DNA of 64,000 bases from assembly GCA_002633005.1 (NCBI GenBank), contig NMRA01000419.1, positions 138,083-202,082 on the forward strand, given 5' to 3'. A program made the position numbers and the translations under genes. This document shows positions 25,801-64,000 of the stretch, one piece after another (position 1 is the first letter of the stretch; each line of letters opens with the position of its first letter). This DNA is from Phoronis australis. Lineage: Eukaryota; Animalia; Phoronida. The notes under the pieces are model-generated. The model saw only the letters and a program-made list of their open reading frames with translations, was not told the DNA's origin and did not search any database.

Positions 25801-28800
25801 AACGTTGTGTGAAAACCTTACAAACGTGTGTTTTGAAAGATCAGTATTCAAAACAGTCCCCAAACTCAAAGTCAAACCTTCCTGACGATCCGCCAAGTAC
25901 TGACGGTCGAATCGAATTGGGCGGAGTTCCAAGAAGCTCGCGAAGGATGCTAGTGAGATCACGGATCTTGTCTACAATACATGGCAAGCTTGCATTCTCG
26001 CGAGCTTATTGCGTCTACGGAACCACGCCTGGTTTTTGTTAGCCTTCATCAATGCGTGCAACAGATGAGCCTACACTGTCACGGTAATATTTGTTATTTA
26101 GACACAAGCTTTCTGAACATCAGTGAAAGAGAAGCCGATTTTATGTCTACAATAAAAACCAGTGTCATGCTACGAACGCTGTCCACACAACACGATTTTA
26201 AACAGCCCGTCGTGACTAATGTGTGCCGTGCGTTCGCTCAAAATGACAAGTTCTTACCAATTTTTTTCTCATACGTCGTAACACATATTATTCCCGACAA
26301 TATGAAATACATGTTCAGCGGAGGCCTGCCCTGGCGAACTAGTATTCTGGATGGACCAAATCGTTGGTAGTTTACGACTCGACTCAATTTCTCACGCATA
26401 GCGGGTGGATATGAGGAAAAACACGATATTCGGTCAAGGGCTCGCTGCAACGAAACAAACCGTTGGTGAATATTAAAAAATCTATTACTTATTCTCGCGT
26501 TGCTGGGTACGCCATCTAAATATTTCTAAAACGGTATGATCACATTACTTTAGTTTTGTCGCCACAATATTAAAAGAAGATCTAAGAGAAAACTATGATC
26601 TCTACGCAGATCCGGGAAATTTTACATAATTTATCTTTTGAATGAGCAGTGTTAACCTTGATTTTATTATACAAGCGGAAGCGTGCAAAATCTGAACGAC
26701 GTAGTCGGCGACAATGAACCCTGAATGAATGCGCAAAGTGGAACAGAATTACAAATAATTTCGTCCATAACAAATCTGACCAGTTGCTCCGAACGTTTCG
26801 TTCAAAAATTCTTCAGTGTCCCTTCTTGAATGTTTCTTTTTCTTTTATTTTCACTTAATTACATCCGCAACATCACTGACCGTCGACCTACTTGTTGAAG
26901 CACGTGAACCTCGGGTACCGTCTTGCTCGCAGTTTTAATTCACATTACCCTTCACATATATCTCGCTGGTTCCATACTGACACGCAGGTATATCATTCAG
27001 TAGCACGCGCTTTATTTCTGGTTGGTGTAACTTCGGCAGTCTTTGGTTAGCTTAACAATGAACTGAGCAGAGACCATAGACTCGCTGGTTCCCTGCGTGC
27101 CGCTAGGTGATCGGTAGCCAGCACGCAGGTATCACTTAAATTTCCTCGGGAAATTTTTTACACCGGCTTTTCTGATTGGCAGGTCAAATTCTCAACAGGC
27201 ATCGCTTTACGCAAACAAAGTGGCATGACTGATGGAGCAAGTGTAAATGTGGTCTGCTATTGTACAGACAAATCCCGGTGCTTAAAATTTATGTTCAGGA
27301 AATCTGAATCCCAGAACTGTGGTTGCGCCTTTTCGGAGTGCATCTTTCTACTGTCGATGACTTTTGTTTACGATACTGTCCTGTATTCATACAGTATGAA
27401 CAGCACACCGGTTAAATCGTCCAGATATGTGTTTACTCAGTGTACATGTATGTGCTTCAAGCACGCGGCTATTAAACATTACTGCAGAAACGAAATAGCT
27501 GCTGCTCCGCCATTTGCATGACAAGGCTAAAAATCGTTCATAGTCCGCAATTTTTTCACGTTGTTGTAAATGCGGCTAACCAATGACTGCCGAGGTTACA
27601 CTAACCAACGCTAAAGCGCGTGCTACTGCGTGATACCTGCCTGCTGAGAACTTATCAAGACCAGCGTCAAGCAAAATCTAATCAAAGTATGTTTCACTGG
27701 AAGCATTTCGTAACTTCTTCTAGTACGTTAATAACGACCCTAAAACATGTGAATTATAAAAGTGGCATTACTGAAAACTTACTCAAAAGTTCTGCTGACT
27801 TCTTTAGCGAATATTTTCAGACAGTATCGATGTCGGTTGAAGCGCAAGTGCTCGTTCTTGAAAAATTGACCTATATTCATGTCAAACATGCCAATAGTAG
27901 GTGAAATTAATTGGACTTGACCTAATTATAAAATTGTCCTCCCGTAAATGAAGGCTCGTAAATGATAAGCAACCAATTTCCAATGCCAATTTTTTTCCTA
28001 AATGTTCGCAAAAAACTTTCAAAACTGTTTATTGACTTCGCACATCACCATAGCTTTGTAGAGTTATTTTAGTTTCCACATCTTCATGTTAATCAACGCA
28101 CTATTGTTGAGTTTATGCACGTCTCGTAAATGATTCCAAAAAAAATCCACCGCGCCTCTTGAAAAGCAGTGCCACACAGACATTTTCAGATGAGGCAAAG
28201 GTTTAAAAAAATAATGCCATCGCCGTTTTTTGTGTATTACAAATTACTAATCGCGAATTCCCTAAAATATCTCTTGAAACTTTTTTTACAAAAACACGCC
28301 AATGAGGTCTCGTAAATGATTTGAGATTTGGCTTCACTCAGTCAACATGGTAGTAATTAAAATTTATTTTTTGTTTATAAAAAACGTTGACTTTCTCTTT
28401 AAATATTTCTCGCTGAGTTTCCAAAACGCTATTTTTCCTTTCGATTGGACAAGTTATTATAAGAAAAAAGAGCCTGTTTCTACTTTGTCGTTTTTTCAGC
28501 TTCACACAATTTTATGGAACCCTAGGCTACATGGTGCATTGTGACACCTACCATGTAAACTGTAGCCGGTCATAAGACACAGCACCCACATTAGACATAT
28601 TTTTCTTTATTTTAAACGTCTTTTGACGTTGTTTTATGACTTCGGACATTCTCTGTGGTGAGGTGAACATTGGCTTCAGCATTTGTCATGATTCATTGAG
28701 AATGAATGACTAGCGGGCGTGTGTGCAAAAAATATGGCAAGATATGATGGCTCCCGTCGGTAAAAAAGCAATGGTGCTTTTTGCACTGCCTACGCCTGCA

Positions 28801-33763: not shown

Positions 33764-34007
33764 TCTCTTTGTATGACAAGAAACTGTAAGAAAGATGACG
33801 TGTTACTATTAATGACGTTTGTGAAAAAATTAGTACGACTTGCCAGAAAAAAACGCTAGTAAATTCCACGTGTTGTCTATGTCTTGAAATTACCAGTTGC
33901 CGAGACAGTGTTCGTTAAGTACCCAGCCCCGGAAAACTATAAATCCATGTCAGTGGAGATTGACATGCCGCCCCTACGACTGGGTTAACGCGAAACGTCG
34001 CCGTCTT

Positions 34008-38097: not shown

Positions 38098-38505
38098 TGT
38101 CACATTTCCTCCAAGTGTCCATATATGGATGTCACATTTCCTCCAAATGTCCATATATGGATGTCACATGTCCTCCAAGTGTCCATATATGGATGTCACG
38201 TGTCCTCCAAGTGTCCATGTATGGATGTAACATGTCCTCCAAGCGTCCATATATGGATGTCACATTTCCTCCAAATGTCCATATATGGATGTCACATGTC
38301 CTCCAAGTGTCCATATATGGATGTCACGTGTCCTCCAAGTGTCCATGTATGGATGTAACATGTCCTCCAAGTGCCCATATATGGATGTCACATTTCCTCC
38401 AAATGTCCATATATGCATGTCACATGTCCTCCAAGTGTCCATGTATGAACGTCACATGTCCTCCAAGTGTCCATATATGGATGTCACGTGACATGTCCTC
38501 CAAAC
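38098..38505. repeat. 32-bp minisatellite (about 12-13 copies) with 128-bp higher-order periodicity
   Basis: Unit GTCACATGTCCTCCAAGTGTCCATATATGGAT; variant order recurs every 4 units. Confidence 0.9.
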
Positions 38506-38790
38506 CTACATATATGAACTTCTTCAGCCAGCAGTCAGAGATGACAAGTTTGCCGGTGGGTCAAATGCCGCACGGAAGCCATAAAAGTTGTCGTGCAATA
38601 GGTCCATATCAAAGACTGATGTCACTAAAACTTGCCAAAACATCTCTTTCACATCACCTGCTGTACGAGACATTTTGAGGGTGATTCAATCACATACACA
38701 TAGCAAGGCCCTGAATACTGCAACCTCATGGAACACACAAAGCTGCTATTGAACAGACGCTCCAAGCCTTAAAAACAACAGAACTCAGAT

Positions 38791-39205
38791 TTAAAATTTG
38801 CGAAGCGCATAACGATTAGAGGAGAGGTTACTGAGAACGCCTGTTAGTCTGGAACTTTGGAAAGAAGGCAAGAAGCTAGCCGCTGACTTGGTTGGTGTGT
38901 AGTAGACTGGTCGTTCATTATACGGCTCCATCACTGGTGCCACATACGGCTCGTCTTCGTACTTTTTCTTGGCAATCTCTCTCAGCATTTCAGCGTCGGC
39001 GCCTCCAATTTTTTCCACCATCTTGGTGAAGAGACCATTGGGGTTCTGCAGCAGCAGGTGTGGTGGATCGATCTCCTTGATGCGTCCAGCATCCATCACC
39101 ATCACCCGGTCCATATCGATGACCGAGGTCAAGCGATGGGCCACAATAGCTACTGTACTACACTTGAACTTCTGTCGTAAGGACTTCTGAATGAGAGCAT
39201 CAACT
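38791..39205 (-). CDS. ABCC4: ABCC4-like last coding exon (H-loop VAHRL; C-terminus ...RYALRKF*)
   Basis: ttacag acceptor; TAA stop. Confidence 0.9.
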
Positions 39206-42200
39206 CTGTAAAGAAATTATCAGTTAAGTTGAACACAAATGTTGTCAATTACATGTCAACAAATAGGTTTGGTTGTGCACAAGATCAGCTAGAAATTGCC
39301 AACTGTCTCTGATAACATGTAGCACATTACACTTCCCTCATTATCAAAAGAGTCTAATATCTGTTTTCCATCCCGTGATTTCTTCATCTGTTAATATTCT
39401 AAATACAGAGTTGTGTATTAACCCTTTAATGCAAAGTGATGTAAAGCCAGCAGGCATCATGAATAACGTATTATTTCTCTTTTTATGAATCAATAGGATG
39501 TAGAAACAACAAGTGTCACAAACTTCATAAAATCAACAATCATGTAAGATAAGACATGGCTCCAATCATGTAAGATAAGACATGGCTCCAACACTCTCAT
39601 ATAACTAACAAACCGTTCATTAACTACTAGTTCTAATAAATAGTTTGTGGCCTGGAGAAAATGTAATTTCTGTCACATGTTTCACACAAATGAGAAATTC
39701 CCACAAAAACTTGAGAACCTAATTCTCACCTCTGATGGATGTGTCCCGTGGTCTCCTCGTAAATCAAGATGGAGTTGTGTCTGATGAGCGCCCGCGCAAG
39801 GCACAACAGTTGTTTCTGACCTAATGTGAACACGTGACCTATATCAGACAGATCGGCGTACAGTTTACCAGGGAGGCTTTCTATCTTCTTCTTCAAGTGC
39901 ACTTCCTCTATAGCCTTCCATAACTGTGCATCTGTGTACAGTGACGAAGGGTCCAGATTCTTCCGCACTGTCCCGCTCAATAACACAGGATCCTACCATT
40001 AAACAAATTAATTTTAAAAATAAAAAAATGTTCGTTTATACAAGAAGGGAGGAACAGCTGCGGTGCTGAATCAAATAAGGCAGGGTCGGTTCAGTGTTCT
40101 GCTCTTTGGATAATCTAGTTGGTGGTGGGCTATAAGTTCATTTTTTATGCTTTTTATTCATTGCTTTGAAAATCCAGGCATTTCAGACCTTGTTCATTTC
40201 AGACCTTGTTCATTTCAGACTATGTTCATTTCACACCTTGTTCATTTCACACCTTGTTTATACTTGCTTTTTGTGTCTATGCAACTTTTCAAAACACATG
40301 AGACTGGTGGAACTTGATGCAGGTAGGCATTGTTTAATGTGTCAGAACAGGTCTCAGCATGGGTCGGACAGACACACGAACCATCAAAATATGTTTTTGG
40401 GCAAATAATTAAATTTACTCAAATCAAATTTTGGTGAAAGCTGTGTCGCAGGGCCACAAGGTGGCATTAGTGAACCACTTGTGAAGATGAATGTCATGCT
40501 CATGACTCACAACACAGAGTGATGAAGATGACTGGCAACCAGCGAAAGATCTTGATAAAATTTCACCAAATTGATGGCAGCACAGATTAATTATTTGATT
40601 CTAACATTAAGATTCACTTAACATTGCAGAAAAAGTTGTTCCAGTGGTTTTAATATCAATATGGATTGAGCATTTTTTCTTCTGTTTGCAAGGTGAAAGC
40701 AATCTTAGTACAATCTTTACAAAATATCGACACACACAGGCTATTGCAATTTTTATAAAAGTGTTCGAGTAAAACCTTTGAATGCAAAGGGAACATTTGT
40801 GAACAAAGCAACATTTGTGAACAAAGCAACATTTGTGAACAAAGCAACATTTGTGAACAAAGCAACATTTGTGAACAAAGCAACATTTGTGAACAAAGCA
40901 ACATTCAACTACGCACGAACCTGTGGAATGATTGAGATTTTCTCCCGAAGATCTTGCAAACCAATTTCCTTTGTATCTAACCCGTCAATTCTTACAGTCC
41001 CGTTAGGCTCAATAAGACGTAAGATGGCAGCCACAAGTGTGCTCTTCCCAGCCCCTGGTCGCCCTATCAGGCCGATCTGGAAGAAAGATACAACATTTAT
41101 TAATGGAGACACCAAGTACACACTGCCTGCAGCCACCAAGTACACATTGCCTGCAGACACCAAGTACACAATGCCTGCAGACACCAAGAACACATTGCCT
41201 GCACAAATGTGACTTTCGTCATATGTAATCCTCTGTATCTGAATCTGTGTAGAATAAACTATTGAGGCCATATTATTTTATGACCTACACCATCTTCAGA
41301 CTTCGGAACCGAATGTTGGAAGTCTCACTTTTGATGGTGAGTTTGCAATGTAAAGGGCTTCTAACAGTTAAACCAGACACAATTTAAAGGTAAGTAATAA
41401 AACACAAAAACATAGTTCAAAGGCTGCGCTGATCTCCAACACAAATCGGTATTATTCACAAAAGCATGGTCACGTGATTACAAATATCAAGGCATTGTTT
41501 CCATTGATGTAATTAGATGTTGCCGTGATCCTTAAGAACATGAAAATTCATAACTTGATAGGCCGACAATCAGTGTTTTAAATTGCTACAATTTTTGAAA
41601 ACATTTTAGTCTCTGTAACATGTTAGTCTCTGTAACATGTTATTCTCTGAAACATGTTAGTCTCTGTAACATGTTAGTCTCTGTAACAACGATAAGCAGT
41701 TACCTTAAAAGAAGGTATAGCCTAAAAGTCAAGTGTGTGTTAATTCTTAAAATGTTTTCAGATTTATGAAAAAAAATTTGGCCATAAACCATTGTAAGAA
41801 AATTTGGTTCAACTGAGAAATTACATCTTTTATACTTCACCTGTACCTTGATTTAACATATTTGTTTTGTGTTTCACATGTTAACACTATAACAACACTA
41901 TGAACAACGAGGCATACTCTTGGCAATTTAATTTTATTCATGGTAAGGAAATAAGTTTTCTTTCGGTTAGAATAGACTATTCAATAAGACACATTAAAAG
42001 TAATCAAACAAAATATTGTTTTTCCATGTTGACCAACATGTCTCCACCTCTCATGGTGATTTACTATAGTCACTCTGATGGTGAAGATCACTTGCACTCA
42101 GCAGTCACAACGTGGAGGTCAAGGTCATTCACTCAACAATCCCAGTCCATTTCCTCACCTTTTCTTGTGCTCTCAAGCAACATGTGACATTCTTCAGCAC

Positions 42201-45200
42201 CTTAGGCCCGCCTTTCTTATACATGATTGACACAGACTCCAGAGTGATGATGCCATATTTGGGCCACTGTAGAGGAGGTCGTGAAGGCAGAACTGCCGCT
42301 GCCTCAGGCTCCATTGAACTGTACTTGAGGATCTTGGCAACAGATGACAGCTGGAAAGTTACAACATAGCAGTAGTACTATGAGTGTACAATGGTGAGAA
42401 ACATTAACAAGACACTTCAGTTTGGTTACATGGGCCCAAATATAAACACAAACAGCATACTGATGAACTGAAAACTAAGTGCTAGAAGCCAAAGTCTGAT
42501 TAAATATATAACACAAAAAACTTCATAATACATTTGAGGATCAAACATAAAATCCTGTCAGGTAAATTTTCTCGGGCTACATTTCCTCAATGCTAAAAGT
42601 GATGAGAAATCGCCCTCTACTTTACACGGCACAGCTGTCTAGATCAACAGGAGGCACACTGCTAGTCCCTTGAGTCAGGTTTCTAGCTCCTCAGCTCAGT
42701 TTTAACTATATATTAAAGAAAAAAATAGTTCCAGGTGATCAGTGTAATGGGCCCACATGTGTGGTCTGCGCATATAAGGTAAATGTACTAGACTGTCTTT
42801 ATACGTGACCCAGCACCACAAAATAAGTCTTAAATAGAGATTTGTCATTTTCGTAATTGTTATTTTTTCTGAAAATACAGCATTTTCACCAAACCTGTTG
42901 TATCTTAAATTTAGAAATCACAGCGTTCCATTAAAATTGGTTTGACTAAATTGGTTTATACTGTTTCAGGTAACTAACTTTGTCCCTAGTATGACTGAAG
43001 GTCTCAAAAACAGGGCTTGGAATGACCAATGACAAAATACGCGGAAACTTTGAAACTTTTACGGCCCAAATCATGCCCGATAACCAGCCTTGAAATGGTC
43101 AATGTGAACCTCTCCCCGACAAAAATCGGGACTAAAAAAAAAAAAAACGTTACCACCATCAGTAGCATGCGTCTGCGTCCTTTTACCTCGCCCGTCCACT
43201 CCCAACCCACACATTTTTGGCTGCAGAGCGGTAGTATTTGTCGCCGCACTCAACAATGACAAGAGACGCCATTGAAAATCCCACCACGTTGTCCCAGATG
43301 CCCCGGCAATGTTGACAATTTACGTTCCTCCGAAACATAAAGAGCAACTTCTGCTTTTCGAGGTGAACGTCATCTGCAACGCCGCGGTAAGAAAGGAATT
43401 TGCCGCGGAAATTTTATATCAAATCCGATTTTTTTAAGTGGAAATATTATAAAAAAAGCGGAAAGCACATTTGAAAAAAGCGGAAATCCGCGTTTCCGCG
43501 GAAATTTCCAAGCCCAGCAAAAAACAATTTAATTTTCATGAAGCAGACCCCCAAAAAGTAATATTCATGTTGGGCCACTGCAACTGGGTCAATAAATTTC
43601 CCAGCTAATGTAAAAAGGACCAGTCCACTTTTCGCAGGAGGGGTTACCGCAAGTAAAACAAGGTAGTTTAAGTGTAATTTGACAACGTTTAATAAAATAC
43701 AGTCCAGTCTGTTACAAAATACAAATTAGTGGCTGACTCTTGTTCACAATAATTCAAAATTCTATTAATAACCTGAAAATAACTTACAGCGACTCATCCC
43801 TAGCTATATTTTCCACAGACAACTGCAGAGCAACAATTTCTTTGATAGCACACCGCTTGATGCAGCCCTGTCCAAGATCATTCTCGGAACTTTCAGTTAT
43901 ATGTTGGACTAGTGACACTTCTGTTGTATTTACCCCCAATGCAATATGTATTTACCCCCAATGCAATATGTANNNNNNNNNNNNNNNNNNNNNNNNNNNN
44001 NNNNNNNNNNNNNNNNNNNNNNNNNNNNNNNNNNNNNNNNNNNNNNNNNNNNNNNNNNNNNNNNNNNNNNNNNNNNNNNNNNNNNNNNNNNNNNNNNNNN
44101 NNNNNNNNNNNNNNNNNNNNNNNNNNNNNNNNNNNNNNNNNNNNNNNNNNNNNNNNNNNNNNNNNNNNNNNNNNNNNNNNNNNNNNNNNNNNNNNNNNNN
44201 NNNNNNNNNNNNNNNNNNNNNNNNNNNNNNNNNNNNNNNNNNNNNNNNNNNNNNNNNNNNNNNNNNNNNNNNNNNNNNNNNNNNNNNNNNNNNNNNNNNN
44301 NNNNNNNNNNNNNNNNNNNNNNNNNNNNNNNNNNNNNNNNNNNNNNNNNNNNNNNNNNNNNNNNNNNNNNNNNNNNNNNNNNNNNNNNNNNNNNNNNNNN
44401 NNNNNNNNNNNNNNNNNNNNNNNNNNNNNNNNNNNNNNNNNNNNNNNNNNNNNNNNNNNNNNNNNNNNNNNNNNNNNNNNNNNNNNNNNNNNNNNNNNNN
44501 NNNNNNNNNNNNNNNNNNNNNNNNNNNNNNNNNNNNNNNNNNNNNNNNNNNNNNNNNNNNNNNNNNNNNNNNNNNNNNNNNNNNNNNNNNNNNNNNNNNN
44601 NNNNNNNNNNNNNNNNNNNNNNNNNNNNNNNNNNNNNNNNNNNNNNNNNNNNNNNNNNNNNNNNNNNNNNNNNNNNNNNNNNNNNNNNNNNNNNNNNNNN
44701 NNNNNNNNNNNNNNNNNNNNNNNNNNNNNNNNNNNNNNNNNNNNNNNNNNNNNNNNNNNNNNNNNNNNNNNNNNNNNNNNNNNNNNNNNNNNNNNNNNNN
44801 NNNNNNNNNNNNNNNNNNNNNNNNNNNNNNNNNNNNNNACAGTCAACCTGTGTAAATCATTAATTAAGAGCACATTAATGTCTCACATCGTTATACTAGA
44901 CACAGTCAACCTGTGTAAATCATTAATTAAGAGCACATTAATGTCTCACATCGTTATACTAGACACAGTCAACCTGTGTAAATTATTAATTAAGAGCACA
45001 TTAATGTCTCACATCCTTATACTAGACACAGTCAACCTGTGTAAATTATTAATTAAGAGCACATTAATGTCTCACATCCTTATACTAGACACAGTCAACA
45101 TGTGCATTTAGTCCAATATTTATAAATTGAATTAGAAAGATTAAAGTACATATTTCCTGAAAGTCCAAAGTCTGTTGAATTCCATTTTTAACTTAAACAT

Positions 45201-48200
45201 AAAACTGAAATTCATTGGATAATGCAACCATGTCTCTTATGTACTAAAAATTATCACAAAATGTACATTGTAAAACAATGGTTTCAATAACAAGGCCAAA
45301 TTTCATTTATAATTAAAATTAATGTTCAATGAATTCTCAAAATCATTTTTACAGTTTTCTAAATAATGGTTTTGCTTTCATTTTACAGAAAGTTTCACTC
45401 GAATCTCTGACTATATGATGTATTGAAATTAGCCAAATTTGGCATTTTCCATATCATATAATTTTAACAAATTTGACAGACCAAACTGTCTCACACTGCT
45501 AATGCTGGTCAAATCCTTCATTTTGTTCTCCTCGCCCTACTCTTACTCCTGAGATGGGAAGATATTAGACAAAATATTCTACGTCATGACACATGTACAA
45601 AAGTCGCACTAGTATTATCAACAACATCATTGCAACAATATTCTGTTTAAAACTTCAAGTTAAACATGGCTTTGGAAGGGAAGCAGACGTCATTTCAACT
45701 TGGGTCCAATTCAACTAAAACTTGCATACATCAGATCCAACTAAGAGGAGATATTTTATGAGTATGGTGAAATCCAAATGATACGACGGATTGAGTGAAT
45801 GAAGTAGAACAACTATGCAATGGACATTTGTCAGAGTTAGACAAAAATCTGACTTATCCATGTTCAACTCATGCGAGTTTTTGTATATAATCATCAAAAT
45901 ACTCCCAGAATCTTAAAAGATTGCGTGACTTTTAGACAACAGCACCTTGCATTCAAGTTCCAATGGTTTGAAAAGCATTGACAAAACTGGCAATCAAATC
46001 TTATTTCCTGGTAATGTACACAACAATGGGCCACCGACTGTAAACTGAATTGTGCGTCTTGGCAAATTATATAGTCACTAGTGATATGGAACGCATTTGG
46101 TAATTGCATTTCATTGTCTTGAATAGCCAACAGATGGCAGTACTATACAATTGACCTACCTGTGAACTCCTTAGTGACCACGACACCAAAGGCAACCAGA
46201 GTGACAAACAACATGAGCAGAATATCAAGCCTGAGTGCGATCCACCTGGCAGTAGCAATACCCATGTAGCAGACTGCTGTGTGTCTGTCCTGGTATGTAT
46301 CAAATGTATGTAGGAACCTTTCCTCATTCTTTAAGGCTCGTACCGTCCACAGCCCTTCTAAGGTAGCAGTGAGGTGAGTGTAGATAGGGGTACGAGCTGT
46401 TGGCAAGGAAATAAACAAACTACTTACATCAACAGTTGGGCTAATTTTTATTAAAGATACAAAACATTCACCGTCAATGGCTTCTGATGCCAACAATAGA
46501 CTTTTGAATTACAAACTTTCAGGAAGCAATGGAGGCCGATCCCGAAGGACCAGTGACTCATAGTGGCACCTGGCTGTACCACGAGGTACTTTGTCTTCGT
46601 AGCGAGTGGCAAAGGGGAAAATTTTGACTTCGTGAAAAGATCATTTTACAATGTATGTAATTAGACATGATGTATCTTAAACAAAAGTTAGAAAGTGCCA
46701 CTGATTACAGTCCCACATGGTTTAGTCGCCATCTTGAAAGTCTCCATTAGAGTACCTGTCACAGTATGTTGCTTTACATTGGTATCAAGTTTAAGAGGTA
46801 GATATGACTGGACTCTGAATACAACCTAGGAGTCTAATCTTCAGCAATAATCATTTCTGTATCCTTCCACAGCCAAAATATCCCTCCTAATCTCTGTAAA
46901 GAATTACTCTAGACAAAGTTCAAAGCAGTTACACTATCAGTATTTCAAGCCATAAGTCAGCATTTCAAGTTAACATAAAAAATTGGTGATTATGGAACAG
47001 GGTGTTTAAAAATAAATAATTTCACATAGCTTAGTTAGCCACTTAACACCATCTATCTACAGTGAAACACTAAATTACCATAATTATAATTTGTACTCAA
47101 ACTGAACCAGCTGAAAACATGCTCTAGGTGGTCAATACACAAACGTCAAGACACTTGTTTAATCCAAACACTCACTTTGTTCATCAGTCTATTCCCCATT
47201 ATGTATACAAGATATACTAGATCATACCACTTGAGAGTCAACGTGTAACAGTGACACTATCACCCACACAACATATACTTCAAACTTGGCTCTTACATTA
47301 TCACTTGAATCAAATAGAAATTAATGGAGCTGGTAACGGCATTCAAGCCATCACATCCCAATGCTCAACTGCACAACCACACATAGTGCTTGGTTTTGTT
47401 TTCAGAATTAAGTTTGCCCAAGCCATATCACATTAAACAGCACACGCAGCTTTGATATTTATAATCTAAAAAGTTGAAAGTTCAGAATGTGCGACACTGT
47501 AGACTTACATGTGGCCTCCATCCGCCTAATGTCCCTAGCTGTCTGGATATAATAATATCGAGCGTAACCGAATATGAAGGCCAACACAAGTAGGATAATG
47601 AACAACCAATAGTTCATGGCACACACAGTCATCACACAGACCAACACTAGGCTGAAACTCTGTAACAATGAACAGTTGGGTTATGAACAAGATGGCAAAT
47701 TGTGACCAATATGGAGGATAACAAACAAGGATGAACAACAGTCAGTAATTCATGGTTTAGTCATCAGTCAGAACAAAACTAAGCTGAACTTTGTATAAAC
47801 AGACTAATGTTGTATTCTGGTTTCACACACCATAGACACTGGACTTATTTAACATTCACACAAGAATAAATCCTGCAGTTCCATTGGTCCAACCCTCAAA
47901 ATAAATAACAAGAGCAACGCGGAGCGTTGAAATGCGCCAACGAATGCATTACAAATGGTGTGCTTTTAGGGTTATTTATTTGTATCATAAAAATGGCCAC
48001 TAGATGGCGCAAAAACATACAATCCATCCAAAAACGGGAACATGCCATATTTCATAAAAATCTGTCAAGGAACTTCAGAGAAACGAAGGAAAACAGAATA
48101 AAATGAAATTGCCACTAGTGGGCACAGTGTCCGTTGGATCCGCCTGAAAGTCGTCGTCATTTGTTGTTATCTTCATATAAATACACTTACTAAATTTAGT

Positions 48201-51200
48201 AAAGATCCTGCAGTGGGTTTAGAAGATACAACTATAGGCACAAAAAAAATACCACTAGGAGGAAACGCAGTAGTCAGTCACCATCATCAAACGTCATCTT
48301 CACACTGAGAAGTTCAACATAAATGCCAATTTTCAAATGATTTGGTTGATACAGGGGTGGACACCAAAAACAAGATTTGAAAACAGCAAAAAATGGCCAC
48401 TAGGTGGTGCAAAAAACCTCGATTCCATACAAAAACAGGAAGATAGCGTCATCACATCAATAGATGCCTATATTTAAAATTTTATGTTGAGGACCTTTGA
48501 AGATACTGAGTTAAACGTAAAAAATTGAAATTGCCACTAGGGGGCACAGCAGTAGTCAGATCTGTCCCAAAGTCGTCGTCATCCGTAGACAAATACACTT
48601 GCTAAATTAAGTAAAGATCCTGCGAACGGTTAAGGAGATACAGCCATAGGCGCAACAAAAACAAAACTGCCACTAGGAGGTGCCACAGTAATTGAAATCG
48701 TCGGAAAAGCATCGTCAACCGTCCTCTTCATAGTAAGCACATACATGCCAATTTTCACAATCATCCTTTGAGCGGTTTGGTTGATAGAGGGGTGGACACA
48801 AAAAACAGACTCGAAAATAGTAAAAATGGCCACTAGGTGGCGCAAACTACGTTGAATCCATCCGAAAACGGGAGGATAGCGTCATCTCACCAATAGGTGC
48901 CTACATACCAAATTTCATGAAAATCCGTTCAGGACTTTTGAAGATACAAAGGTAAGCGTAAAAACTAAAACTGCCACTAGGGGGCAAACCGGTAGTTGCA
49001 TCCGTCCGAAAGTTCTCTCATGTTGTCCCATTCATGAACGAAACATATGTGCCAAATTTTATGAACGTATGTCAAAGGGTTTTGGAGATAGAGCAGCGGG
49101 TGCCGGACGGACGCCGCCCAGACGGACGCACGGAGATGACGGCATAATGCGTCGACATATAAATATGTGGGCGCATAAAAACAATAAACTTTGATGCAAA
49201 ACCAAAATCCGTCCAATTGATAATGGTACTTCAAGGTAAAACACTGGCCAAGAAGACCCCTACAAAACATACTTTCTGATGGGAACTCGTTTGACGTAAG
49301 TCTTGATACACATGGTAGTTTAGACAGTGCTGAGATGTTAAATTCATTTGTTGAATATTATAGTATGTAAAATAGGCAACAATTATACATTTTATGGCTA
49401 TTGTGAGAAGAGTTAGAAAACAACTTCAAGGTTGGTAATTGTTTTGTAAAATAACATGAACATACAAAACAGACACTTAAGACATTGAAGACATGGAAAA
49501 TGCAATCAAAAACAACAATACCTGAATAGTGTCAAAGAACGTGGAGGGAAGCAGGTCGTCTACAAAACTGACATCTTGAGAGAATCGTCTCAGAATACGA
49601 CCTAAAGAGCAAATGATGCAGATGTTAGTTTGTGTCGTACATATGAGAGCAGACAATCTTTTGTCAAGTAGTCAGCTGGAGGCAACTTGACTCAAAATAG
49701 AAACTGACAATTGTGATATGCAATATTATTAGTGCTAGCATAGTAAGGTGTTTCATTAACTATGTGCATATGGTAATCAACAGTACTATAATTACCCAGC
49801 GGACTCCTCTCAAAGAATAGAATGGGTGCTCGAATGACAGCTTCAAACATGTCGTCATGGAGAATTTTCGATGTCCTTAACGCCGAGATCAGAAACACTA
49901 TTGAGGACATAATGGTAAAGATGAGTGCTGCCACCGTGAGACCAACGTATATGGCCAGGTTATAGTAAATGCCATCAGGCCCCAGTAGGTTACTGTTGAC
50001 ATTGCTCTGAGTTTGATTACGGTACAGACTTGCCCTGCACATGAAAGAAGAGAAAAATAGTCTTGAAAATGAACAGTCTGATGGCGATCATTCTTATCGA
50101 TTTAAAATCTGTAGATAAATAGAAAACTGGACAAACCAAGCCGTATGTTAATGTCATGAGCCATTACAAAGGCTAGGCAAGATTGTCTTAGCTTGCTAAC
50201 AATAAAACTAGATTTGATCTGATCTGTCTAATAAATGACAAGAGGTGACTCTAACTATTGTTTATCAGTTGATACATATAATCTTGGCCTAACTACTGTT
50301 GACCAGTTGATACATACAATCTTGGCCTGACTACTGTTGACCAGTTGATACATACAATCTTGGCCTGACTACTGTTGACCAGTTGATACATACAATCTTG
50401 GCCTGACTACTGTTGACCAGTTGATACACACAATCTTGGCTTAACCATTAGAAACTTACCAAAATGCAAGCCACCAGTCACTCAGAACATAAGAAGCCTG
50501 AAAACAAATGGCAAGGATTGTTAAATTATAATTATATTTTAAGTCTACGACGAATCACCATTTAATAAAACTACAATTAAGTATTAAATCAGTGGGCAGA
50601 AAGGGCAAAGTTCAAAGTTCAAAGTAAGAGAAAACAAAAAAGGGCAAAGTTCAAAGAAAGAGAAAACAAAAAGGGAAAAGTTCAAAGTAATAGAAAACAA
50701 AAAAGGGCAAAGTTCAAAGTAAGAGAAAACAATATTTCTTTAGCCCAAAATAAGACTTATTAGACATTGAGCTGTTTAGCACATCGACATCAAAAAGTAT
50801 TAGCATGCCTATTCTCAGGGGATCATAAAGTTAAATCAAAACAATAGAAACTCAACAAGGCAACAGTCTTATTAGTACCTAAACAACCCTGAATAAATTG
50901 TTAACATAAAAAAGTAAAGAAATATCAGCCTCTGAACCCTGAACTTCAGACAAAACCTTTAATACCTGCTTGACAGTCTGACGACTCATTGTTACAAGAG
51001 ACAAGATGGTCACTCCACATACAGCCATACCAACTTCATTATAACATCATATAAACATAACATGAGCTCAAACTAAGAGTTGAGTAAAAACTGGGAGTCT
51101 TGTTGCAAAGACTGGGTCTTTGAGCCACGGAAACAAAAGTTCAAACAGCTTTATCCAAACACCCATAGACCACTATGAGACAGAATGCTTTGTTGTTGCA

Positions 51201-54200
51201 ACGAACAAAAAGAAGGTACTTACCAGTGTCAATAACCAAAGTACAAAGAATGCCACCAGACCCGACAAGCCACTGCCAATCAGAAAGTAATGCAGGAATG
51301 TATCCATACGCACATAGGATGGTGTCTTGCCTTCAGATACAAGTTGCTTCTCATCATGGTCATTCTAACAACAAAAAACTTACATATAGTGAGCGATTCA
51401 TTAAGACAAAACACAAGAATATTATGTTCTACACAGAACATGGAACAGTTCCAAAATTGAATTGAAATGTTATGCTGCAAGGACATGAATCACATTTGGC
51501 TGGCAGAAGAAAACGGCAGTGTGCTAAGATATGTTCCAACAATGAATTCACAATTCCATAAGAAAAGATAGAAAAACCTCCCCAAACAGGTAGTTTAGCG
51601 GTGCATCTGTAATACTAAGACTAAGAAATTTTTATTTTGCAGCAAAATTACAGGATGGAAGATAGCTTGTTAATTAACACAGGTATAATACCTCTGGGTC
51701 CTTAATTAACACAGGTATAATACCTCTGGATCCTTAATCTCAAGTGTGATATCTTGTAATGATTCCATAGAAGTGTGATTGGAATAGTCCAGCCTCTTTT
51801 TGGCCCTGGTCACCACACTGGGCATAGCAGGGACTTTACTGGTGGATGGGGGCCTCACTGGGGTTACTGATGAACTGTGTGCCTTCTCATAATCCATGAG
51901 CAAGTTACTGAGGTCCTCGTATGTACCTGTGGAATCTATAGTACCCTACAACACACAGATAGCTATAGTACCCTATAACACACAGATGGAGAGGTGATGC
52001 TACAGTACACTCAATTAAACAATGTTTCAAATACAATCAACTAAAAACTGACACAAAATATGTACAATCTCGAGTTTGTTGCGTTCGAGCACAAGCACCC
52101 GAATCTCCCAATGATTCAACCATTATAAGAACCAACAGTTTTACAAATGTTGTTGCTGGCGGTGGATACAAAGAACAGATTCATTCAAGGGCCTGCGCGT
52201 CATTACAAACATCTGTTGAGAGATTATTTCTGATGAGAGCGCTTTTCAAATGCAGAACTTCGGCTGTTATTGCCATAGCATTTTAGCTTGTGTTCTTTCC
52301 ACAAATCCTCATCATAAATGCTTGAAAAACAATGCCTTGAAATTGTTGCTCTCAATGCAGGGCCAGAACTGTATCAGATAAAAACATGTATATGACGCTA
52401 TTGTACACAAGCATTCTACTATGCACAATTCAACCGAAACTACACTGTAAGTAGTACGAGGTAAACTTTAATCTCAATTTGAAGACATGCTTTGTAGTTG
52501 GTCACGGTTGATTTATGTAGGGCCTTGACCACATGACTCCGGAAACTTTTGAAAATGCACACTTAATTTATTAACACAGATACACTTTCTGTCCAAATAT
52601 ACATGAACAGTGTACATGAACAGTGTACATGAACAGTGTACATGAACAGTGTACATGAACAGTGTACATGAACAGTGTACATGAACAGTGTACATGTTTA
52701 ATGTAGGTACTAAATGCATCAACTAATAAAACTCTGGTTAACTTTCAAAACTGTCCTCAATAGTGGAGTTTTTAAAAAGCCGAATTCACGGCATTCATGT
52801 CGTAAGATGACAATACTTTGTACACACAGTTATTGCGCTTTTGTGAACATGCCAAAAAGCAGTCGTACAGTTAAAAAAAATAGCTGGGTTTTCAAAGTGA
52901 AAATGGCATTGTATTGACCGGGACACATCCAATATAACTGAACTCGTTACTGTCACGAGTCAAAGATCGAAAGTGAAAAAAACTTTCACGTCTTGTTATT
53001 CAAAATTGGTTGCGCTGTCCATAATCCCAAAATGTTCAGTTACCGCTTTCCTTCAACCTTCAAATTAGTTGTGTTGTACAACCGAGTGAACTCGTGTAAC
53101 AGTGACACATTAAAACTACTAGGTAAATTTATTTCACCCTGTGCAGAGACCAACATGCATCAGCACCCAATGTGACAATAGCCTGACAACCTATTACACA
53201 ACTGAGACTCTAGCCTAAAAATAGTAGCCAACCACTTTAAAATTGGGTCAACTGATGGCCAGTCAGCAGTCAAGAGTCGACTGAGGGGTGGCCTTATGAT
53301 TCGGCAGTGCAGTCGGCTACAAAATTAGCAAAACAGCCGACCAGTCGTCAACTCTTAGCCGATCCGTCGGACAAAAAATTTGTGATGTGTGCCGTAGATA
53401 ATAATGAGGAGTGAAATGCTATATGAAGTGCAATCAGTAGTTATAAAGAAAATTATACTGAATGCTATGACTAATATATTAAAGGCATTACTTTCTAAAA
53501 TCAAAAGCTCTAACTGTGAATAATGTACTTACATCCTTCATGACAAGAATTTGGTCAGCTGACTTCATAAAGTTCAGACGGTCAGTGACAATAAAGACAG
53601 TTTTGTTCTTTAGTACTGTGCATATACACCTGCAACAATAAAATAGTCAAGTTAATTTAATACAAGGCGGAACATGGAACTGTGAAACAATGCAAGAAAG
53701 ACAATTTTGGGTTATTTTTGAATATTGAGTATTTTTTCAGTGAGATTAGAGAAGTACTTTTTTCTGAGAAATTAAACACTTACCATCAAATATGTCAGTT
53801 GATGTCTCTGTTTCAGGTCTTATCATCAGTGTAAAAGAAACAACAATAGCCTCCTCTATTAAATTCATTTTTGGATGTGTGGTATTCAAAGACTATGTTA
53901 AATTATGTGGTAAAAACATTCATTTGTCATTTCAGTAACAAATATTGAATGACTCACAGTTAACACAAATTGTGACTTCACTTCCTCCAAGCTAAACAAG
54001 TCATATAACTCGACATCCCAGTATGGTTTTGGCATACCTCATGAATATTTCAGTGGCTGTTTTATTATCAACATCCACCAGAGGGCAGTCCAGTAGGTAG
54101 ATGTCTGCATCATGATACACAGCACGAGCCAGGTGGACACGTGACTTCTGGCTATCAGACATGGAGATCCCTTTGTCTCCAATTTCTGTCAAATCTGAGT

Positions 54201-57200
54201 AGGGCAGCGACTCCAAGTCCTGTAAATGTCATGTAACGAACTGAAACGTACACTTCTGCGAAACATGCAAAAAAGTGGATTTTGCGTCGTCCATTAGTCC
54301 CAATACACTAGCCAATAGCCATTAGTCCCAATACACTAGCCAATAGCCATTAGTCCCAATACACTAGTCAATAGACATTAGTCCCAATACACTAGCCAAT
54401 AGCCATTAGTCCCAATACACTAGCCAATAGCCATTAGTCCCAATACACTAGCCAACAGCCATTAGTCCCAATACACTAGCCAATAGCCATTTTCCATGAG
54501 ATCAGAATAAGCGAGACAGTAGTCAAATGAACCAAAAATTACATTAAAAAATATCTGTTACTTAACGCAAAACTTCGCTTTAATTTAAGAGTGTCTTACT
54601 TAACAACTAAGTCAAGGTCAGTTTGCAGGTAATATCTTATTATTTTTTAATGCACACAACAGGCACAAAGCCAGCTCTTGAAAAGTGTACAACATGTGCA
54701 AGCAGAAGGTACCTTGACAAGACAGCAGGCATTCAATATCCTGTTGTACCGCTGCCTGTCCAGTTTAGCACCAAACAGAATGTTGTCTCGTAGGCTTCCC
54801 GAGAACACCCAGGGTTGGGCAGCAGCATAACTCACATGACCTTTGACACGCAAGAATCCGCTTACACGTGGTATTTCATTCAACATAGTCATCAGCAGGG
54901 AAGACTGAAAATGGAAATTTGAAGTCATGAACAAAAAGGTTCTGATAAACACACCAAAAAGAAGGAACAAAGCGTGATACCTTGTCAAAGTCAAACAAAA
55001 ATGCGCTTCGCATTGACACTTTTTGCATTGGTTGAAGTTCAAGAGTGAAAGACAATTATCAAACACTTCTATATAAATTAAGGACTGGTATGAAGCATTG
55101 TCAACGGTCACTTCCCCAGTGACAATTGGGATGAGTTTACCTGTCTGTCGGGATGCGGACGTAGTCTTGTGGGTTATGTATTATTATCTACTCAACTATT
55201 TGATTTAGTAGAGGATTTTGTTGTGGATGAATGGGATGAATCTGATCATCTACCAGTTATTTGTAAGTTTAGGTGTTGTAGGTCAGAGATCAATCCTCCT
55301 AAGGTTCCATTGTTACAACCGCATAGCCGGATTCAGTGGGAGAGCTCTAATGCACAGGCATTCTCTCAGGTTTTTTCAACAGGTGCTAAGAATTGTAGGG
55401 AGACTGTGGATAGCTCGGTTGCTAGTGGCAATCTAGATAATGCAGTCAGATCCATAACAGATTTGTGGTGGCAGTCAGCCGTATCAAGCATGAAAACTCG
55501 TACATCTACAAATAGTCAGACTAAAGTAAATCGAAACTCGGCGACAAAGCAGCCACCCTGGTGGGATGATGAATTGGCTTCGGCCAAACGAGCAAAAATA
55601 TGGTCTTTAAAACTGTTTCGTAAAAACTCTTCTGTCCTTTACGTTAATACGTATAAAGTAAAAAAGATCATGCTTTCTGTGATTTGTTTAAACAGAAAGA
55701 GAAAGCATATGAAGCCCAACTTACTGAAGCCATTTAACGTTCCAAAAATAACCCTAGGAGTTCTGGCAAATAATTAAATCCAACAATCAGACATCCCGTA
55801 TGTCTGTTACAATTAGTTCACAGAAATGGCACGACTATTTCAAGGATTTATTGAACCAAAACTGATCTATTGACGAGTCTTTGAGTGAATTTGCCACGCA
55901 CGATATGATTGAACATGATAGTTCTAGTGAAAAGTGTACTAACAATTACCGATCTGATCTTAACACTGATTTTTTGCCTTCTGAAAGATATGAGGCCATT
56001 GAACAGTTGCCTAATGGCAAGGCTGGGGGTTATGATGGTGTGATTTTTGAAATGCTGAAGTGCACTGAGGTAATGACAGTGCCAGTCTTGCGTAAGTAAC
56101 TTAATGCATTTTTTGATTCTGGGTATTATCCCCAGACTTGGTGTGACACAGTGCTTACTCCAGTACATAAACTAGGTTTAATATCAACAACGATTCCCTG
56201 TTGTCTGCTTTAGGAAAACTTTTTACCGAACTTTTAAATAATCGTCTTTATTACTGGGCTGAAAATACTGTGATAAAACTTTATGAGTCTCAAGCTGTGT
56301 TTAGAAAAGGCTACTCTACGATTGACCAAGTGTTTACACTTCAAGCTATGTGCCACAAGTATTTGAGTTGGCAGGGTGGGAGATTTTACTGTGCCTTTGT
56401 AGATTTCTCGAAGGCATTCGATCGAATCCCACATAATTTTCTCTCCATAGACTGAAAAACATTCATGGGCATGGTAAAATTTTCAACATAATCCCCTCTA
56501 TGTATAGTAAATTGCGCATTTGTGTGAAAACTCAAGAAGGTCTTACAGAGTTCTTTCATTGTACTGCTGGGTTGCATGATCAGCCCATTATTATTTGTGT
56601 TGCATCTAAATGAATTTCTGGATCAACTGAGTGCAAAAAGTAATATTAATACCACATACCTCAGCAAACAATTGCCAAGAGTCAACTCCCTGCTGTACGC
56701 AGATGACATGGTGTTATGTTCCTCTGCCGCCATCAACTTACAACATATGCTAAACTGTTTGGCAGAATTTTGCGAATCATGGGGCATGCAAGTAAACTTG
56801 AAGAAAACTAAACCGGTTGTTTTCAGAAATGGCGGTCCCCTTAGATGATATGAGAATTCGTTTTACAATGGTTAATGTGGTGTCTCATTACAAACACCTT
56901 GGACTACTTATTACTCCAAAAATTTCGTGGACCAAAGTCATTAAAGCCTTATCTAGTCAAGCAAATAAAGCTGCCTCTGCAATTTGTAAATTTAAGCGAA
57001 GATGTCGTGATCTACCCCCGTTAATAGCCTTTCACCTGTTCAATAAAATGGTTTACCCCTCTCTGTGTTACGGCGCTGAGATATGGGGCTTTAAGGAATA
57101 TGAACAATTCGAAAATGTACATATCAAGTTTTGTAAACGCATTTTGGGAGTAGACAGTTGTAGTTCTAACTCAGCAATTATGGGAGAATGTGGTCGATTC

Positions 57201-58327
57201 CCATTGATTAATAAATATTTTGTATTCTGAATAAAATGCTGGTTCAAAATATTGGAGATGCCTGGTAATCGTGGGGAAAAGACAAGTTTTGTAAGTAAAC
57301 TTCTGTCTGTGCATGGTTTTTCAGATGTATGGATTAATCAGGTGTGGTAAACCAAGCGTATTTCTTGACAATTTTTTTCTCAACATGTCAACGACTGTTA
57401 TTTGCAAGGATGGTAATCTGATATCGAATGTAACGCAATACTGCCTTACAATGTGAGGTATAAAACAATGTATTGTCTTGAGAATTATCTAGAAATAATT
57501 AGTATCCCACGTGTTTTTATCCAGTCTCTGACTCGATTGCGATGTTCAAATCATTTGTTACTAGTGGAAAGAGGTCGCCACACAAATATTCCCTATGAAA
57601 ATAAGTTGTGTGCATTATGTAATTCGGTATGTGTAGAGAACGAATCATTATTCTCATTCTCCCACAACGGATATCCTACTTCTAAAATTCGTCCATCATA
57701 CTCTCAAGCGTCACAATTTATTATCCCATTTGTAACGCACCTGACAATGTGCTGTCTTGTACATGTTATACTTTGGGCCTATGGCCATGTGTATATATTT
57801 CAATAAATTACTAAAAATGAAGTTAGTACATTAGTATACATTGCATAGCATTAACTTACCAGGTCTTGCATAACGGTAAGCTTAGCTGATCTCCAAAATA
57901 TCACTCACCTTTCCTGACTCACTAGGACCCACAATACCAATGAGCTGACCTTTCTCTACTGTTAGACTTATATTGCACACTGCAAAGCTTGTATTATGCT
58001 GAAAAAACGAAACAAGTCGTTCAAATCCAACACCTCCAGAAAACTAGTGAGATGAAATGAGATACACAGGTCATGTTCATTGATAGAGTGTTTAAAACAC
58101 TAGATCTACAAAGCAGAGCTTTCAGTCTCACTTCTTGAGAACCTTATCAGAGTTTATTATCAATCAACACAGGCAACCTTTGAACATCCAACCTCGTCTT
58201 AATAAGGATGGGTAATTAAGACAGCCTGCAGATCCTGACATATATATATGTATATGTATAATATGTAGATGTATATGTATATGTATAATATGTATATGTA
58301 TATGTATAATATGTATATGTATATGTA

Positions 58328-58365
<38 letters not shown>

Positions 58366-61300
58366 TGTTAATGCTAAATGTCTATTAGTGTGACAATAGC
58401 AACAACACGAATGTCATCAGCAATGCTTTTAAGGTCTCAATTGACCTATCACCAGGATTTTGAGTGACGGCAAACTGACCAATCACAACGCACATTCTTG
58501 ACACACCGTCGTTTCCAAGCCGCCAATTTACCAGACAAGCAACATGTTGCCGGGTAAAACTTATTGTTTGTTTATCTACATTGCGCAAGGGACAGAGCTT
58601 GCAATAGGTCAATTATGAACAGGTAAAGCTGACCCAAAGGGAGGCTAATGAAGAATTAGTCCTCTTTTTATCATCTGCAGTGACTGAAAACTCAAAGTTG
58701 TTCACCCAAATGAGGCTCAAATGAATATCTGAATGCATGTGTTTATACAGGTCAGACTATTGCCTCGCAAGCGCCACCTGTTGAATCTTAAGTACTATGG
58801 AAAACACCATATGGAGCTGCAATACTTACCCTTTTCCAATTAGCAGTGTAATCCTGGTACTGTATAACTGTATCACCATTCAAGCTTGAGGCAGAGTCAT
58901 AGCCATTCTGTGACCTTTCTTCAGCCATTAAAAATTTCTGCAATGAAAATTGAATTTAGATCGAGACATTGTTTCACTTGAAATAGTACCTGCCCTTGCA
59001 TCAGAGAGCCACAGGCTGTGTTCAGCTATCATAAAGACATATTCCACTGCAAGCTAAGTTTGTACAGGGCTCGACGCTTAGATAAATGCCAAGTCACATT
59101 TGGCAATCTGGCAAAAATTCCAGGTTGCCAAACGAAATCTGAGATTTGCTAAAACTAGAGGCGCCTAAATCGATTCCCAGGTTTCTTATCCGGGTGCATT
59201 AACGAAAAAAAGTCAGACGGCCTTAGTGCCACCCAATTTCCTCATGAATGCCTAAATGTAGGCGTACCTTCATTCTCTAACTCAATTCCTCCAGCTGGCA
59301 GACAAACATAGAATGCAGACGACCACATGGGCTAGTGGCACAAATTTCGCTATCTTGCCTGATTTCCAACTTCTGTCTGTTTACTTCCTTTTGTAATTTA
59401 AATGAGGCGGAAAATGTGCAGATTTCACGAAATAAACAAATTGCGAATCAAAAGTAACAAATCTTGGAAAAAAGCTATTTAATTTTAAGTTTAGAAGCCA
59501 ATATGAACTTAGAAACAAATTGAGAGGGAATTATTTCTGATTTAAAAACTCGCAATGGCGACTTTGTGGCGACTTGGAATCTGAGCATTGATGTATATTT
59601 AAAAAGATAGGGTTGCAATAGGATACTTACTACCTGAACAACACAGCTATTACTCTCAAAAAACAAGTTGAAGAAATCTTTTCATGTAAAAAGTGGTAAA
59701 ATATTTGGCTAATCATCAGAAGTTTCAGTATTATTTTTTATATATTTACTTCCGGATTTTGCCGTAAGTACAACGAATCTGAACAAGCTTTGAGAAAATT
59801 TTTTGAAAATATCCACATACAGTGTTACCATGTAGATAGTTTGTTTTTCTCTAATAACGCACTTAATTATAACTATAATTGTTACAAAGTACAGTCTAAA
59901 AAACCAATAAAGTATGCAATATTTTCAACTTCAGGCTATCATTGTTGTACCAACCTGTATTTTGTCTATTGCCTCCATTGCCTCTGAGCCATACTGTATT
60001 CCCAGTGGGACCATCATTCCAATACTGAGCCTGAGTACCTCAAACACTAGTAGACTCACAAACACAGCCTTGGCAGTGAGAGGGTTACCAAGGAGAACAT
60101 AGACGAGGAATGTGCCAAATGTCACCAGTTTACCATAGATGAAGTAAAACGACAGACTAAACCCCTTGAAAAAGACAGCCCTTTTTATGATATCTGTCTC
60201 TCGCCTGAAATCAGAACATCAATAAATTAGAATTTCAGCCAAAATACACAAACATGGGAATACAAAAAAGTCATAATAAATTTTGAAGCAAATTATTAGA
60301 AGTACAAACAAAAACTGACATAGAGCGTTGCTTAATTACAACATGTGTCGAGAAGTACACAGGATTCAATTATCAACGAAAGTAATTTTTTTAAAACAGT
60401 AATTTTTTTATATTTTCTTAATTAGAAGTAGACCAACTCCCCTGTTGGTCCACTTACTGTCTATACTAGCCAACCAACTCCCCCTGTTGGTCCACTTACT
60501 GTCTGTACTTGGATATGACATGTCCAAATGGCTTTTCCCAACAGAACATCTTGATCACTCTCATGCCATGTACAATTTCATTCATCACACGTAGTCGCTT
60601 ATCAGTGATACCTGTAGCCTTGTTCCTATAAAAGTGTCATTAAGAAGATGATATGAAATTAGACCAGATTGTTACTCAAGCTAACCTTTTGCAGTAAGTT
60701 AGATTAAGACGCAACTATTTTGTGTAAATCTCAAAACTTCTTCAACGACTAAATCCAATATTTGAATACAGTACCCTACCTACACTTCATATAATATGGT
60801 ATACTCACGACACTCATACTCACGACACTCATACTCACGACACTCATACTCACGACACTCATACTCACGACACTCATACTCACGACACTCATACTCACGA
60901 CACTCATACTCACGACACTCATACTCACGACACTCATACTCACGACACTCATACTCANNNNNNNNNNNNNNNNNNNNNNNNNNNNNNNNNNNNNNNNNNN
61001 NNNNNNNNNNNNNNNNNNNNNNNNNNNNNNNNNNNNNNNNNNNNNNNNNNNNNNNNNNNNNNNNNNNNNNNNNNNNNNNNNNNNNNNNNNNNNNNNNNNN
61101 NNNNNNNNNNNNNNNNNNNNNNNNNNNNNNNNNNNNNNNNNNNNNNNNNNNNNNNNNNNNNNNNNNNNNNNNNNNNGACAGGTACATTTTGCACTCATTC
61201 TCATTCTTTCTGTCACTTCTATCAGATGATGTGATATACTATTTTTGACCTTCTACCTGAAGCCACCAACAGCTCAGCACAAATACATGATCCCACCTAA

Positions 61301-63721: not shown

Positions 63722-64000
63722 CTAGTACTAAAATGATGCTTTGTCATATTCAAACTGTGTACCATATCTACATAAATGATCCATAGTACCAAAATGATGC
63801 TTCACCATATTCAAACTATGTACCATATCTACATAAATGATCCGTAATACCAAAATGATGCTTCACCATATTCAAACTATGTACCATATCTACATAAATG
63901 ATCCATAGTACCAAAATGATGCTTCACCATATTCAAACTATGTACCATATCTACATAAATGATCCATAGTACCAAAATGATGCTTCACCATATTCAAACT
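63722..64000. repeat. 61-bp tandem repeat, at least 4.5 copies, running off the window
   Basis: TAGTACCAAAATGATGCTTCACCATATTCAAACTATGTACCATATCTACATAAATGATCCA. Confidence 0.9.

Follow-up and report, generated by a model that had tools for sequence, protein, structure and literature searches.

An ABCC4-like gene of Phoronis australis in a clade of ABC proteins with a degenerate consensus ATPase site

Gene structure, surroundings and expression

The window analysed here (64,000 nucleotides of Phoronis australis contig NMRA01000419.1) carries an ABCC4-like gene on the minus strand, of which 21 exons were traced between 38791 and 62836 by a six-frame scan, tblastn searches using ABCC4 proteins and inspection of the sequence. 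The initial annotation had bounded the gene at 39730..57998, an interval that falls short at both ends, as the gene runs from 38791 to at least 62836. All introns of the traced gene are GT-AG, the last exon closes at its own stop codon, and conceptual translation gives three segments free of stops, with 142, 717 and 341 amino acids; the exon sizes resemble those of human ABCC4. The 5' end was not found within the 64-kb window, and approximately 60 N-terminal residues, which have no match in its sequenced part, likely lie past position 64000. The TM3-4 exon and the TM12 exon likewise had no match in the sequenced part of the window; N gaps are present at both internal breaks, each of which requires an exon length of 2 modulo 3, and these gaps are the probable sites of the missing exons. 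The features are listed in the direction of transcription, where "clade" denotes the group of related proteins introduced in the next section.

62719..62836 (-): exon, end of the lasso/elbow region, unusually conserved in the clade
62135..62350 (-): exon, TM1-TM2
61455..61547 (-): exon, coupling helix ICL1, relaxed in the clade
60958..61176: assembly gap, probable site of the missing TM3-4 exon
60500..60625 (-): exon, coupling helix ICL2, relaxed in the clade
59955..60204 (-): exon, TM5-TM6; Arg362 equivalent kept, Phe368 to Met, Arg375 to Tyr
58830..58937 (-): exon, NBD1 start with the A-loop Trp
57909..57998 (-): exon, NBD1 Walker A with Glu for Gly at position 4 and the Lys retained; motif letters at 57909-57929, the remainder in the following exon
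54713..54904 (-): exon, NBD1 Q-loop (Gln to Ala) at 54815-54829
54038..54219 (-): exon, NBD1 signature MSDSQ (54148-54162) and Walker B/D-loop (54067-54096)
53533..53629 (-): exon, NBD1 H-loop (His to Asp) at 53575-53589
51724-51945 and 51224-51364 (-): two exons, short linker without an R domain, and TMD2 start
50460-50497, 49796-50034, 49522-49601, 47509-47659 and 46160-46396 (-): five TMD2 exons
43973..44838: assembly gap, probable site of the missing TM12 exon
42159..42350 (-): exon, NBD2 start; A-loop Tyr, plus invariant residues specific to the clade
40921..41076 (-): exon, NBD2 Walker A (intact in the Phoronis protein) and Q-loop
39730..39992 (-): exon, altered X-loop, NBD2 signature FTLGQ (39816-39830) and Walker B/D-loop (39735-39770; Walker B Asp to Glu, D-loop Asp to His)
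38791..39205 (-): last exon, H-loop (intact in the Phoronis protein) and clade-specific tail, with tail motifs at 38935-38961 and 38845-38874

Other features of the window include, on the same strand as the ABCC4-like gene, a neighbouring gene with an exon at 26238-26525 (-) that encodes part of a cyclic-nucleotide-binding domain (PF00027, E = 9e-4, which does not reach the curated cut-off) and a possible 5' exon near 33359-33802 (-); ABCC4 itself exports cAMP. A broken LINE-type retroelement at 55094-57806 (+), with an RVT_1 match at 56171-56452 (E = 1.4e-7), sits in the intron that separates the Walker A exon from the Q-loop exon. A high-copy repeat at 42600-43550, with heavy RNA coverage on both strands and a tRNA-like loose end at 42655, likely represents SINE-type elements, and a remnant of a hAT transposase dimerisation domain (PF05699, E = 7e-4, below cut-off) lies at 15722-16048 (-). 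Just past the stop codon, a 32-bp tandem repeat at 38098-38487 carries RNA on the gene's strand, varies in length between individuals and is likely part of the 3' UTR.

The motifs were checked against three raw RNA runs labelled with the same species name, which come from a study other than that of the DNA runs, and against four DNA runs from one study, which are possibly the source of the assembly and so not independent of it. Across the NBD1 region (53440-55040, with 18-19 in 100 of every RNA run sampled), 40 RNA reads were placed, 38 of them at 99% or more, nearly all exonic and in the orientation that a minus-strand gene predicts. The splice joint 53627-54036 was found in 11 RNA reads from the three runs, and loose read ends matched the Walker A exon and the exon at 51945. 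RNA depth at the NBD1 signature was approximately two per run, all reads being 99% alike in two of the runs, where a canonical signature would mean at least three base differences. The only exon variant listed for the region (53596) is synonymous, and a DNA contig of depth 49.5 spans 53724-54320 with no alternative letter. In the NBD2 region (38300-43900), RNA lies on the NBD2 exons at a depth of up to 16 and eight reads contain the splice joint 41076-42159; the Walker B letters of NBD2 rest on a DNA contig over 38461-40317, whose mismatches are confined to an intron, the RNA there providing exon coverage. The reported substitutions are thus real, being present for NBD1 in RNA reads from three runs and for both NBDs in separately assembled contigs. 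No stop, frameshift or broken splice site occurs among the 21 traced exons, two further exons being unread. As the initial annotation had supposed from the stop-free exons and intact splice sites, the gene is no pseudogene: it is intact, spliced and expressed, at a low RNA depth of about 2-16, and it is not an assembly error.

Relatives of the Phoronis protein

With the last exon as query we obtained a Bugula protein carrying the same tail (KAF6037996.1/KAF6024556.1), and a profile built from these two sequences returned relatives from Watersipora (XP_067949778.1), Pomacea (XP_025086729.1), Babylonia (XP_076446071.1) and Nucella (KAL8559581.1), together with a Logan protein, P0261. These orthologues bear automatic names only (ABCC4, ABCC4-like or hypothetical), and the full-length ones from bryozoans and gastropods measure 1359-1425 amino acids. 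In a quick tree of 28 proteins, the seven members (Phoronis, three bryozoan-type and three gastropod proteins) formed one clade (100) within the ABCC4-like group. Identity to the Phoronis protein is 43% for full-length bryozoan-type members and 35-36% for full-length gastropod members, and the latter value, being below the 40% of frog ABCC4, speaks against the grouping. A long-branch grouping through shared NBD decay was ruled out by a membrane-domain tree (26 rows, 716 columns, omitting the NBDs, linker, tail and the partial Pomacea and Saccoglossus rows), which recovered the clade at 100/99 and placed the Phoronis protein beside the bryozoan-type members at 88/89. Its place among these relatives points to a lophotrochozoan-type invertebrate as the likely source.

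Two further sequences were set aside: a Saccoglossus match (P0265) has canonical motifs and falls outside the clade, and P0078 (349 aa) is an ABCC-type fragment with a degenerate signature, without the clade's tail and Walker B marks. No orthologue was returned by a homologue search with the NBD2 exon (77 matches among 200 candidates) or among the best 150 matches of a HMMER search of 50% representatives, and the ESM Atlas gave generic ABC clusters only. The NBD2-exon search missed the Bugula protein that the last exon had found, which indicates that these homologue searches are insensitive; the range of the clade is therefore a minimum, and the searches cannot show absence from bivalves, annelids, brachiopods or deuterostomes. 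No publication on the clade was found in the literature searched, and genome-paper supplements might list these genes. As judged from these comparisons, the group is an old ABCC4-derived clade spanning bryozoans, gastropods and Phoronis.

Degeneration of the ATP sites

The six-frame scan recovered every motif substitution listed in the initial annotation, at its place on the minus strand. The claim built on them, that both ATP sites are degenerate, stands as far as these changes go, but it passed over how much of site 2, the consensus site, is intact in Phoronis, namely the NBD2 A-loop Tyr, the whole Walker A, the Q-loop Gln, the catalytic Glu and the H-loop His. We compared the clade with 244 other ABC proteins of 1100-1700 aa, which came from similarity searches and are no random sample. 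The Phoronis residues at position 4 of Walker A and at the two signature glycines occur in 0/244 of these proteins and the NBD1 H-loop residue in 0/243, while the NBD2 Walker B Asp to Glu change is found in 7/7 clade members versus 0/241 comparison proteins. The NBD2 catalytic Glu is kept in all seven members. The NBD1 signature is broken in each of the five members having an NBD1, with letters that differ (MSDSQ, LFFGQ, LSYGQ, LDNST, LDSST). The same five proteins retain the NBD1 P-loop Gly, Lys and Ser/Thr and the Walker B Asp, and Phoronis NBD1 also keeps the signature Ser and Gln; site 1 lacks a catalytic Glu in every member.

The orthologues thus have in common with Phoronis the Walker B Glu-Glu, a broken NBD1 signature where an NBD1 is present, and an NBD2 X-loop that is altered across the clade, and NBD2 contains nine clade-specific invariant residues. 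Bryozoan-type members additionally show NBD2 Walker A Ser to His, Gln to Glu and His to Arg, and gastropod members are without the NBD2 P-loop and keep the His. At ten key positions, site-2 changes number three in Phoronis, five to six in bryozoan-type members and seven in each of two gastropods, versus none in 235/241 comparison proteins and at most two in any. Among 14 site-2 positions conserved at 90% or more, 3, 5, 4, 10 and 10 are changed in Phoronis, Watersipora, Logan, Babylonia and Nucella, respectively; at ten site-1 positions chosen likewise the counts are 5, 0, 1, 2 and 2, and three controls have no change at any of these positions. Of the members compared, the Phoronis protein thus shows the mildest decay at site 2 and the heaviest at site 1; in its orthologues site 2 has suffered more losses and site 1 fewer. 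Four relatives have lost the NBD1 A-loop Trp. Separately, in ABCC4-like copies from deer, cattle, takin and hippopotamus (P0004, P0006, P0008, P0009, P0010), Lys or Asn stands in place of the NBD2 catalytic Glu, and two of these copies also carry an altered signature; this represents an independent loss in even-toed ungulates.

Other invariant NBD positions drift too (9-15 of 60 versus 1-3 in controls), which, with two exons and the 5' end unread and RNA depth low, is what a decaying duplicate or an assembly artefact might look like. This explanation is largely refuted: the frame is open and the splice sites are canonical, all three RNA runs contain spliced reads, the contigs agree, and bryozoans and gastropods have full-length orthologues with new motifs in common. 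We regard it as very improbable.

The available texts of the papers cited here state that the Walker B Asp coordinates Mg (PMC10569789; PMC10305233), that its removal in CFTR D1370N abolishes hydrolysis (PMC10569789) and that ABCCs have one competent ATPase site only, the consensus site (PMC8640958). Because the Asp is changed in all seven members and its loss is disabling in CFTR, a protein that would not hydrolyse ATP is the favoured reading: hydrolysis is predicted to be absent with strong confidence in the gastropod and bryozoan members and with moderate confidence in the Phoronis protein. We consider it unlikely that the Phoronis protein is instead a slow ATP-driven pump with changed cargo, either because only the bryozoan and gastropod members are dead or because all members cycle via site 1. 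Eleven of the 14 highly conserved site-2 positions are unchanged in Phoronis, and the retained catalytic Glu, signature Ser and signature Gln would suit such a pump; moreover, Asp to Glu is milder than the tested Asp to Asn. In CFTR, G550E acts as a revertant that stabilises the protein and G551S affects gating (PMC11854517), and the altered signature may be only partly disabling. Set against this, the Walker B Asp and both signature glycines are changed in ways unseen in the 241-244 comparison proteins and no member offers a site-1 catalytic Glu. Since the snails are without an NBD2 P-loop, a function shared across the clade cannot depend on site 2. The initial reading of an ABCC4 paralogue with a degenerate consensus ATPase site is upheld, and the presence of this trait in bryozoan and gastropod orthologues makes a non-pumping role much stronger than it was from one gene.

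Membrane domains, tail and candidate functions

Conservation was scanned in 115 twenty-residue windows, clade members versus controls, with a mean identity of 36% for members and 40% for controls. Relaxation is greatest in twelve windows, all of them in ATPase motifs or the coupling helices ICL1/ICL2. The ten windows most enriched in the clade fall in the tail, the helix that follows NBD2, the lasso/elbow, TM6 and TM10-11, the contrast for the tail being inflated because controls have no such tail. The lasso/elbow exon is 73% identical to Babylonia over 26 aa, TM6 bears a Gly and a Tyr invariant in the clade, and in the TMD2 exons (46160..50497) ICL4 and TM10-11 are conserved with the Arg946 equivalent kept. 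ICL4, conserved in the clade, docks on NBD1 according to the available text of PMC11854517. In the C-terminal half of the Bugula protein as modelled by AlphaFold (mean pLDDT 86.9), the NBD is ordinary and the tail forms short helices of low confidence (pLDDT 53-69); such helices are common for binding motifs, and the tail is a candidate for one. Read in this way, the scan suggests that motor and coupling were lost and surface motifs gained.

The pocket of human ABCC4 is described in the available text of bioRxiv 2022.12.25.521909 as Phe324, Leu367, Phe368, Arg375, Trp995 and Arg998. Equivalents of Arg362, Arg946 and Arg998 are basic in all members with data, bar the poorly aligned Pomacea TM12, and the Arg998 equivalent is kept in 5/6, Phoronis TM12 falling in a gap. 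Phe368 and Arg375 are replaced in 5/5 and Trp995 in the relatives, these pocket positions also varying among invertebrate controls. Among solved structures the best match of the Watersipora orthologue is ABCC4/MRP4 (human PDB 8bjf, bovine 8sx7) at approximately 950-960 bits, versus 630-670 for CFTR and about 445-470 for SUR; placement nearer ABCC4 than CFTR follows this score ranking, the trees containing no CFTR or SUR row. The clade resembles ABCC4 in its domain order TMD1-NBD1-TMD2-NBD2 without TMD0, its short linker, its nesting in the ABCC4-like group and its Arg362/946/998 equivalents, and the match of the Watersipora orthologue to ABCC4 begins with its residue 7-8 on residue 8-9 of ABCC4, the Phoronis N-terminus being unread. 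It differs from ABCC4 in that the consensus ATPase site is broken in all members, that Trp995, Phe368 and Arg375 are replaced and that a new conserved C-terminal tail takes the place of the ABCC4 end.

The special parallel to CFTR drawn in the initial annotation finds no support: the NBD1 segment TATEIFMRCIC, taken there as CFTR-like, is close to ordinary ABCC4 and not conserved in orthologues, ABCC4 scores higher, and both the R domain and an Arg352 equivalent are absent. The NBD1-TMD2 linker measures 114 aa in Phoronis, 119-140 in relatives and 107 in frog ABCC4, which leaves no R domain, and a scan of the linker for the basic-basic-x-S/T pattern found no site. The Arg352-equivalent position, mapped from a statement on Pro355 in the available text of a review (PMC8640958), is Met, Leu or Ile, three before the conserved TM6 Pro. 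Like CFTR, the clade is ABCC4-related, has a proposed non-pumping role and shows extra decay at the NBD interface (available text of PMC8640958); unlike the clade, CFTR has a hydrolysing site 2, an R domain and Arg352.

Among ABCCs, SUR is the model for a non-pumping protein that controls a partner, and it keeps its NBD motifs. Unlike SUR1/SUR2 (ABCC8/9), the clade is without TMD0, its orthologues are without the N-terminal extension, and the relationship is much more distant. The clade protein is thus, to judge from its sequence, neither CFTR nor SUR; it is an ABCC4 offshoot that probably lacks a working consensus site.

We ranked four explanations, placing a non-pumping, SUR-like membrane regulator first, followed by a conduit, the slow pump and decay. 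Our tentative preference for the regulator follows from the decay of motor and coupling while surface motifs were gained. On this reading, an ABCC4-derived lineage has lost its consensus ATPase site; its product may hold nucleotide at NBD1, the cavity may bind an anionic ligand, and the conserved tail and lasso region could act on a partner. The intact part of site 2 in Phoronis tells against this, as does the lack of a SUR-type TMD0, and a nucleotide-sensing site shared by the clade is weakened as a notion by site 1 being most altered in Phoronis and by the loss of the A-loop Trp in relatives. The conserved TM6 and cavity arginines suit a conduit equally. A passive anion channel or uniporter, carrying organic or inorganic anions downhill and gated by ligand, tail or nucleotide binding without hydrolysis, in an independent parallel to CFTR, is a possible but rather doubtful alternative. 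Its cavity arginines are kept, the bulky aromatic clamps Trp995 and Phe368 have given way to smaller residues, and TM6, with its invariant Gly and Tyr, is among the most clade-conserved windows; in the available texts, CFTR is derived from the ABCC4 branch, with anion-binding residues put to new use (PMC8640958), and CFTR mutants that are non-hydrolytic still gate (PMC10569789). The missing R domain and Arg352 equivalent weigh against a conduit, as does the requirement of CFTR gating for ATP-driven NBD dimers, given gastropods without the NBD2 P-loop and the relaxed ICL2/X-loop coupling. For the regulator and conduit together, we consider it probable that the clade represents a third independent ABCC repurposing after CFTR and SUR, as a fully hydrolysis-dead, ligand- or nucleotide-sensing channel or channel regulator, with the Phoronis protein as the least decayed intermediate.

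CFTR and SUR are the textbook non-pumping ABCCs, each with a second ATP site that still works or nearly does. What appears to be new here is a conserved, cross-phylum clade, derived from ABCC4 stock, with a degenerate consensus site, in which the loss of site 2 forms a graded series from three changes in Phoronis through five to six in bryozoan-type members to the absence of a P-loop in snails. This series opens the question of how the motor was lost and what role followed to direct test, and some snail and bryozoan genes now counted as MRP4 detoxification pumps are probably not pumps.
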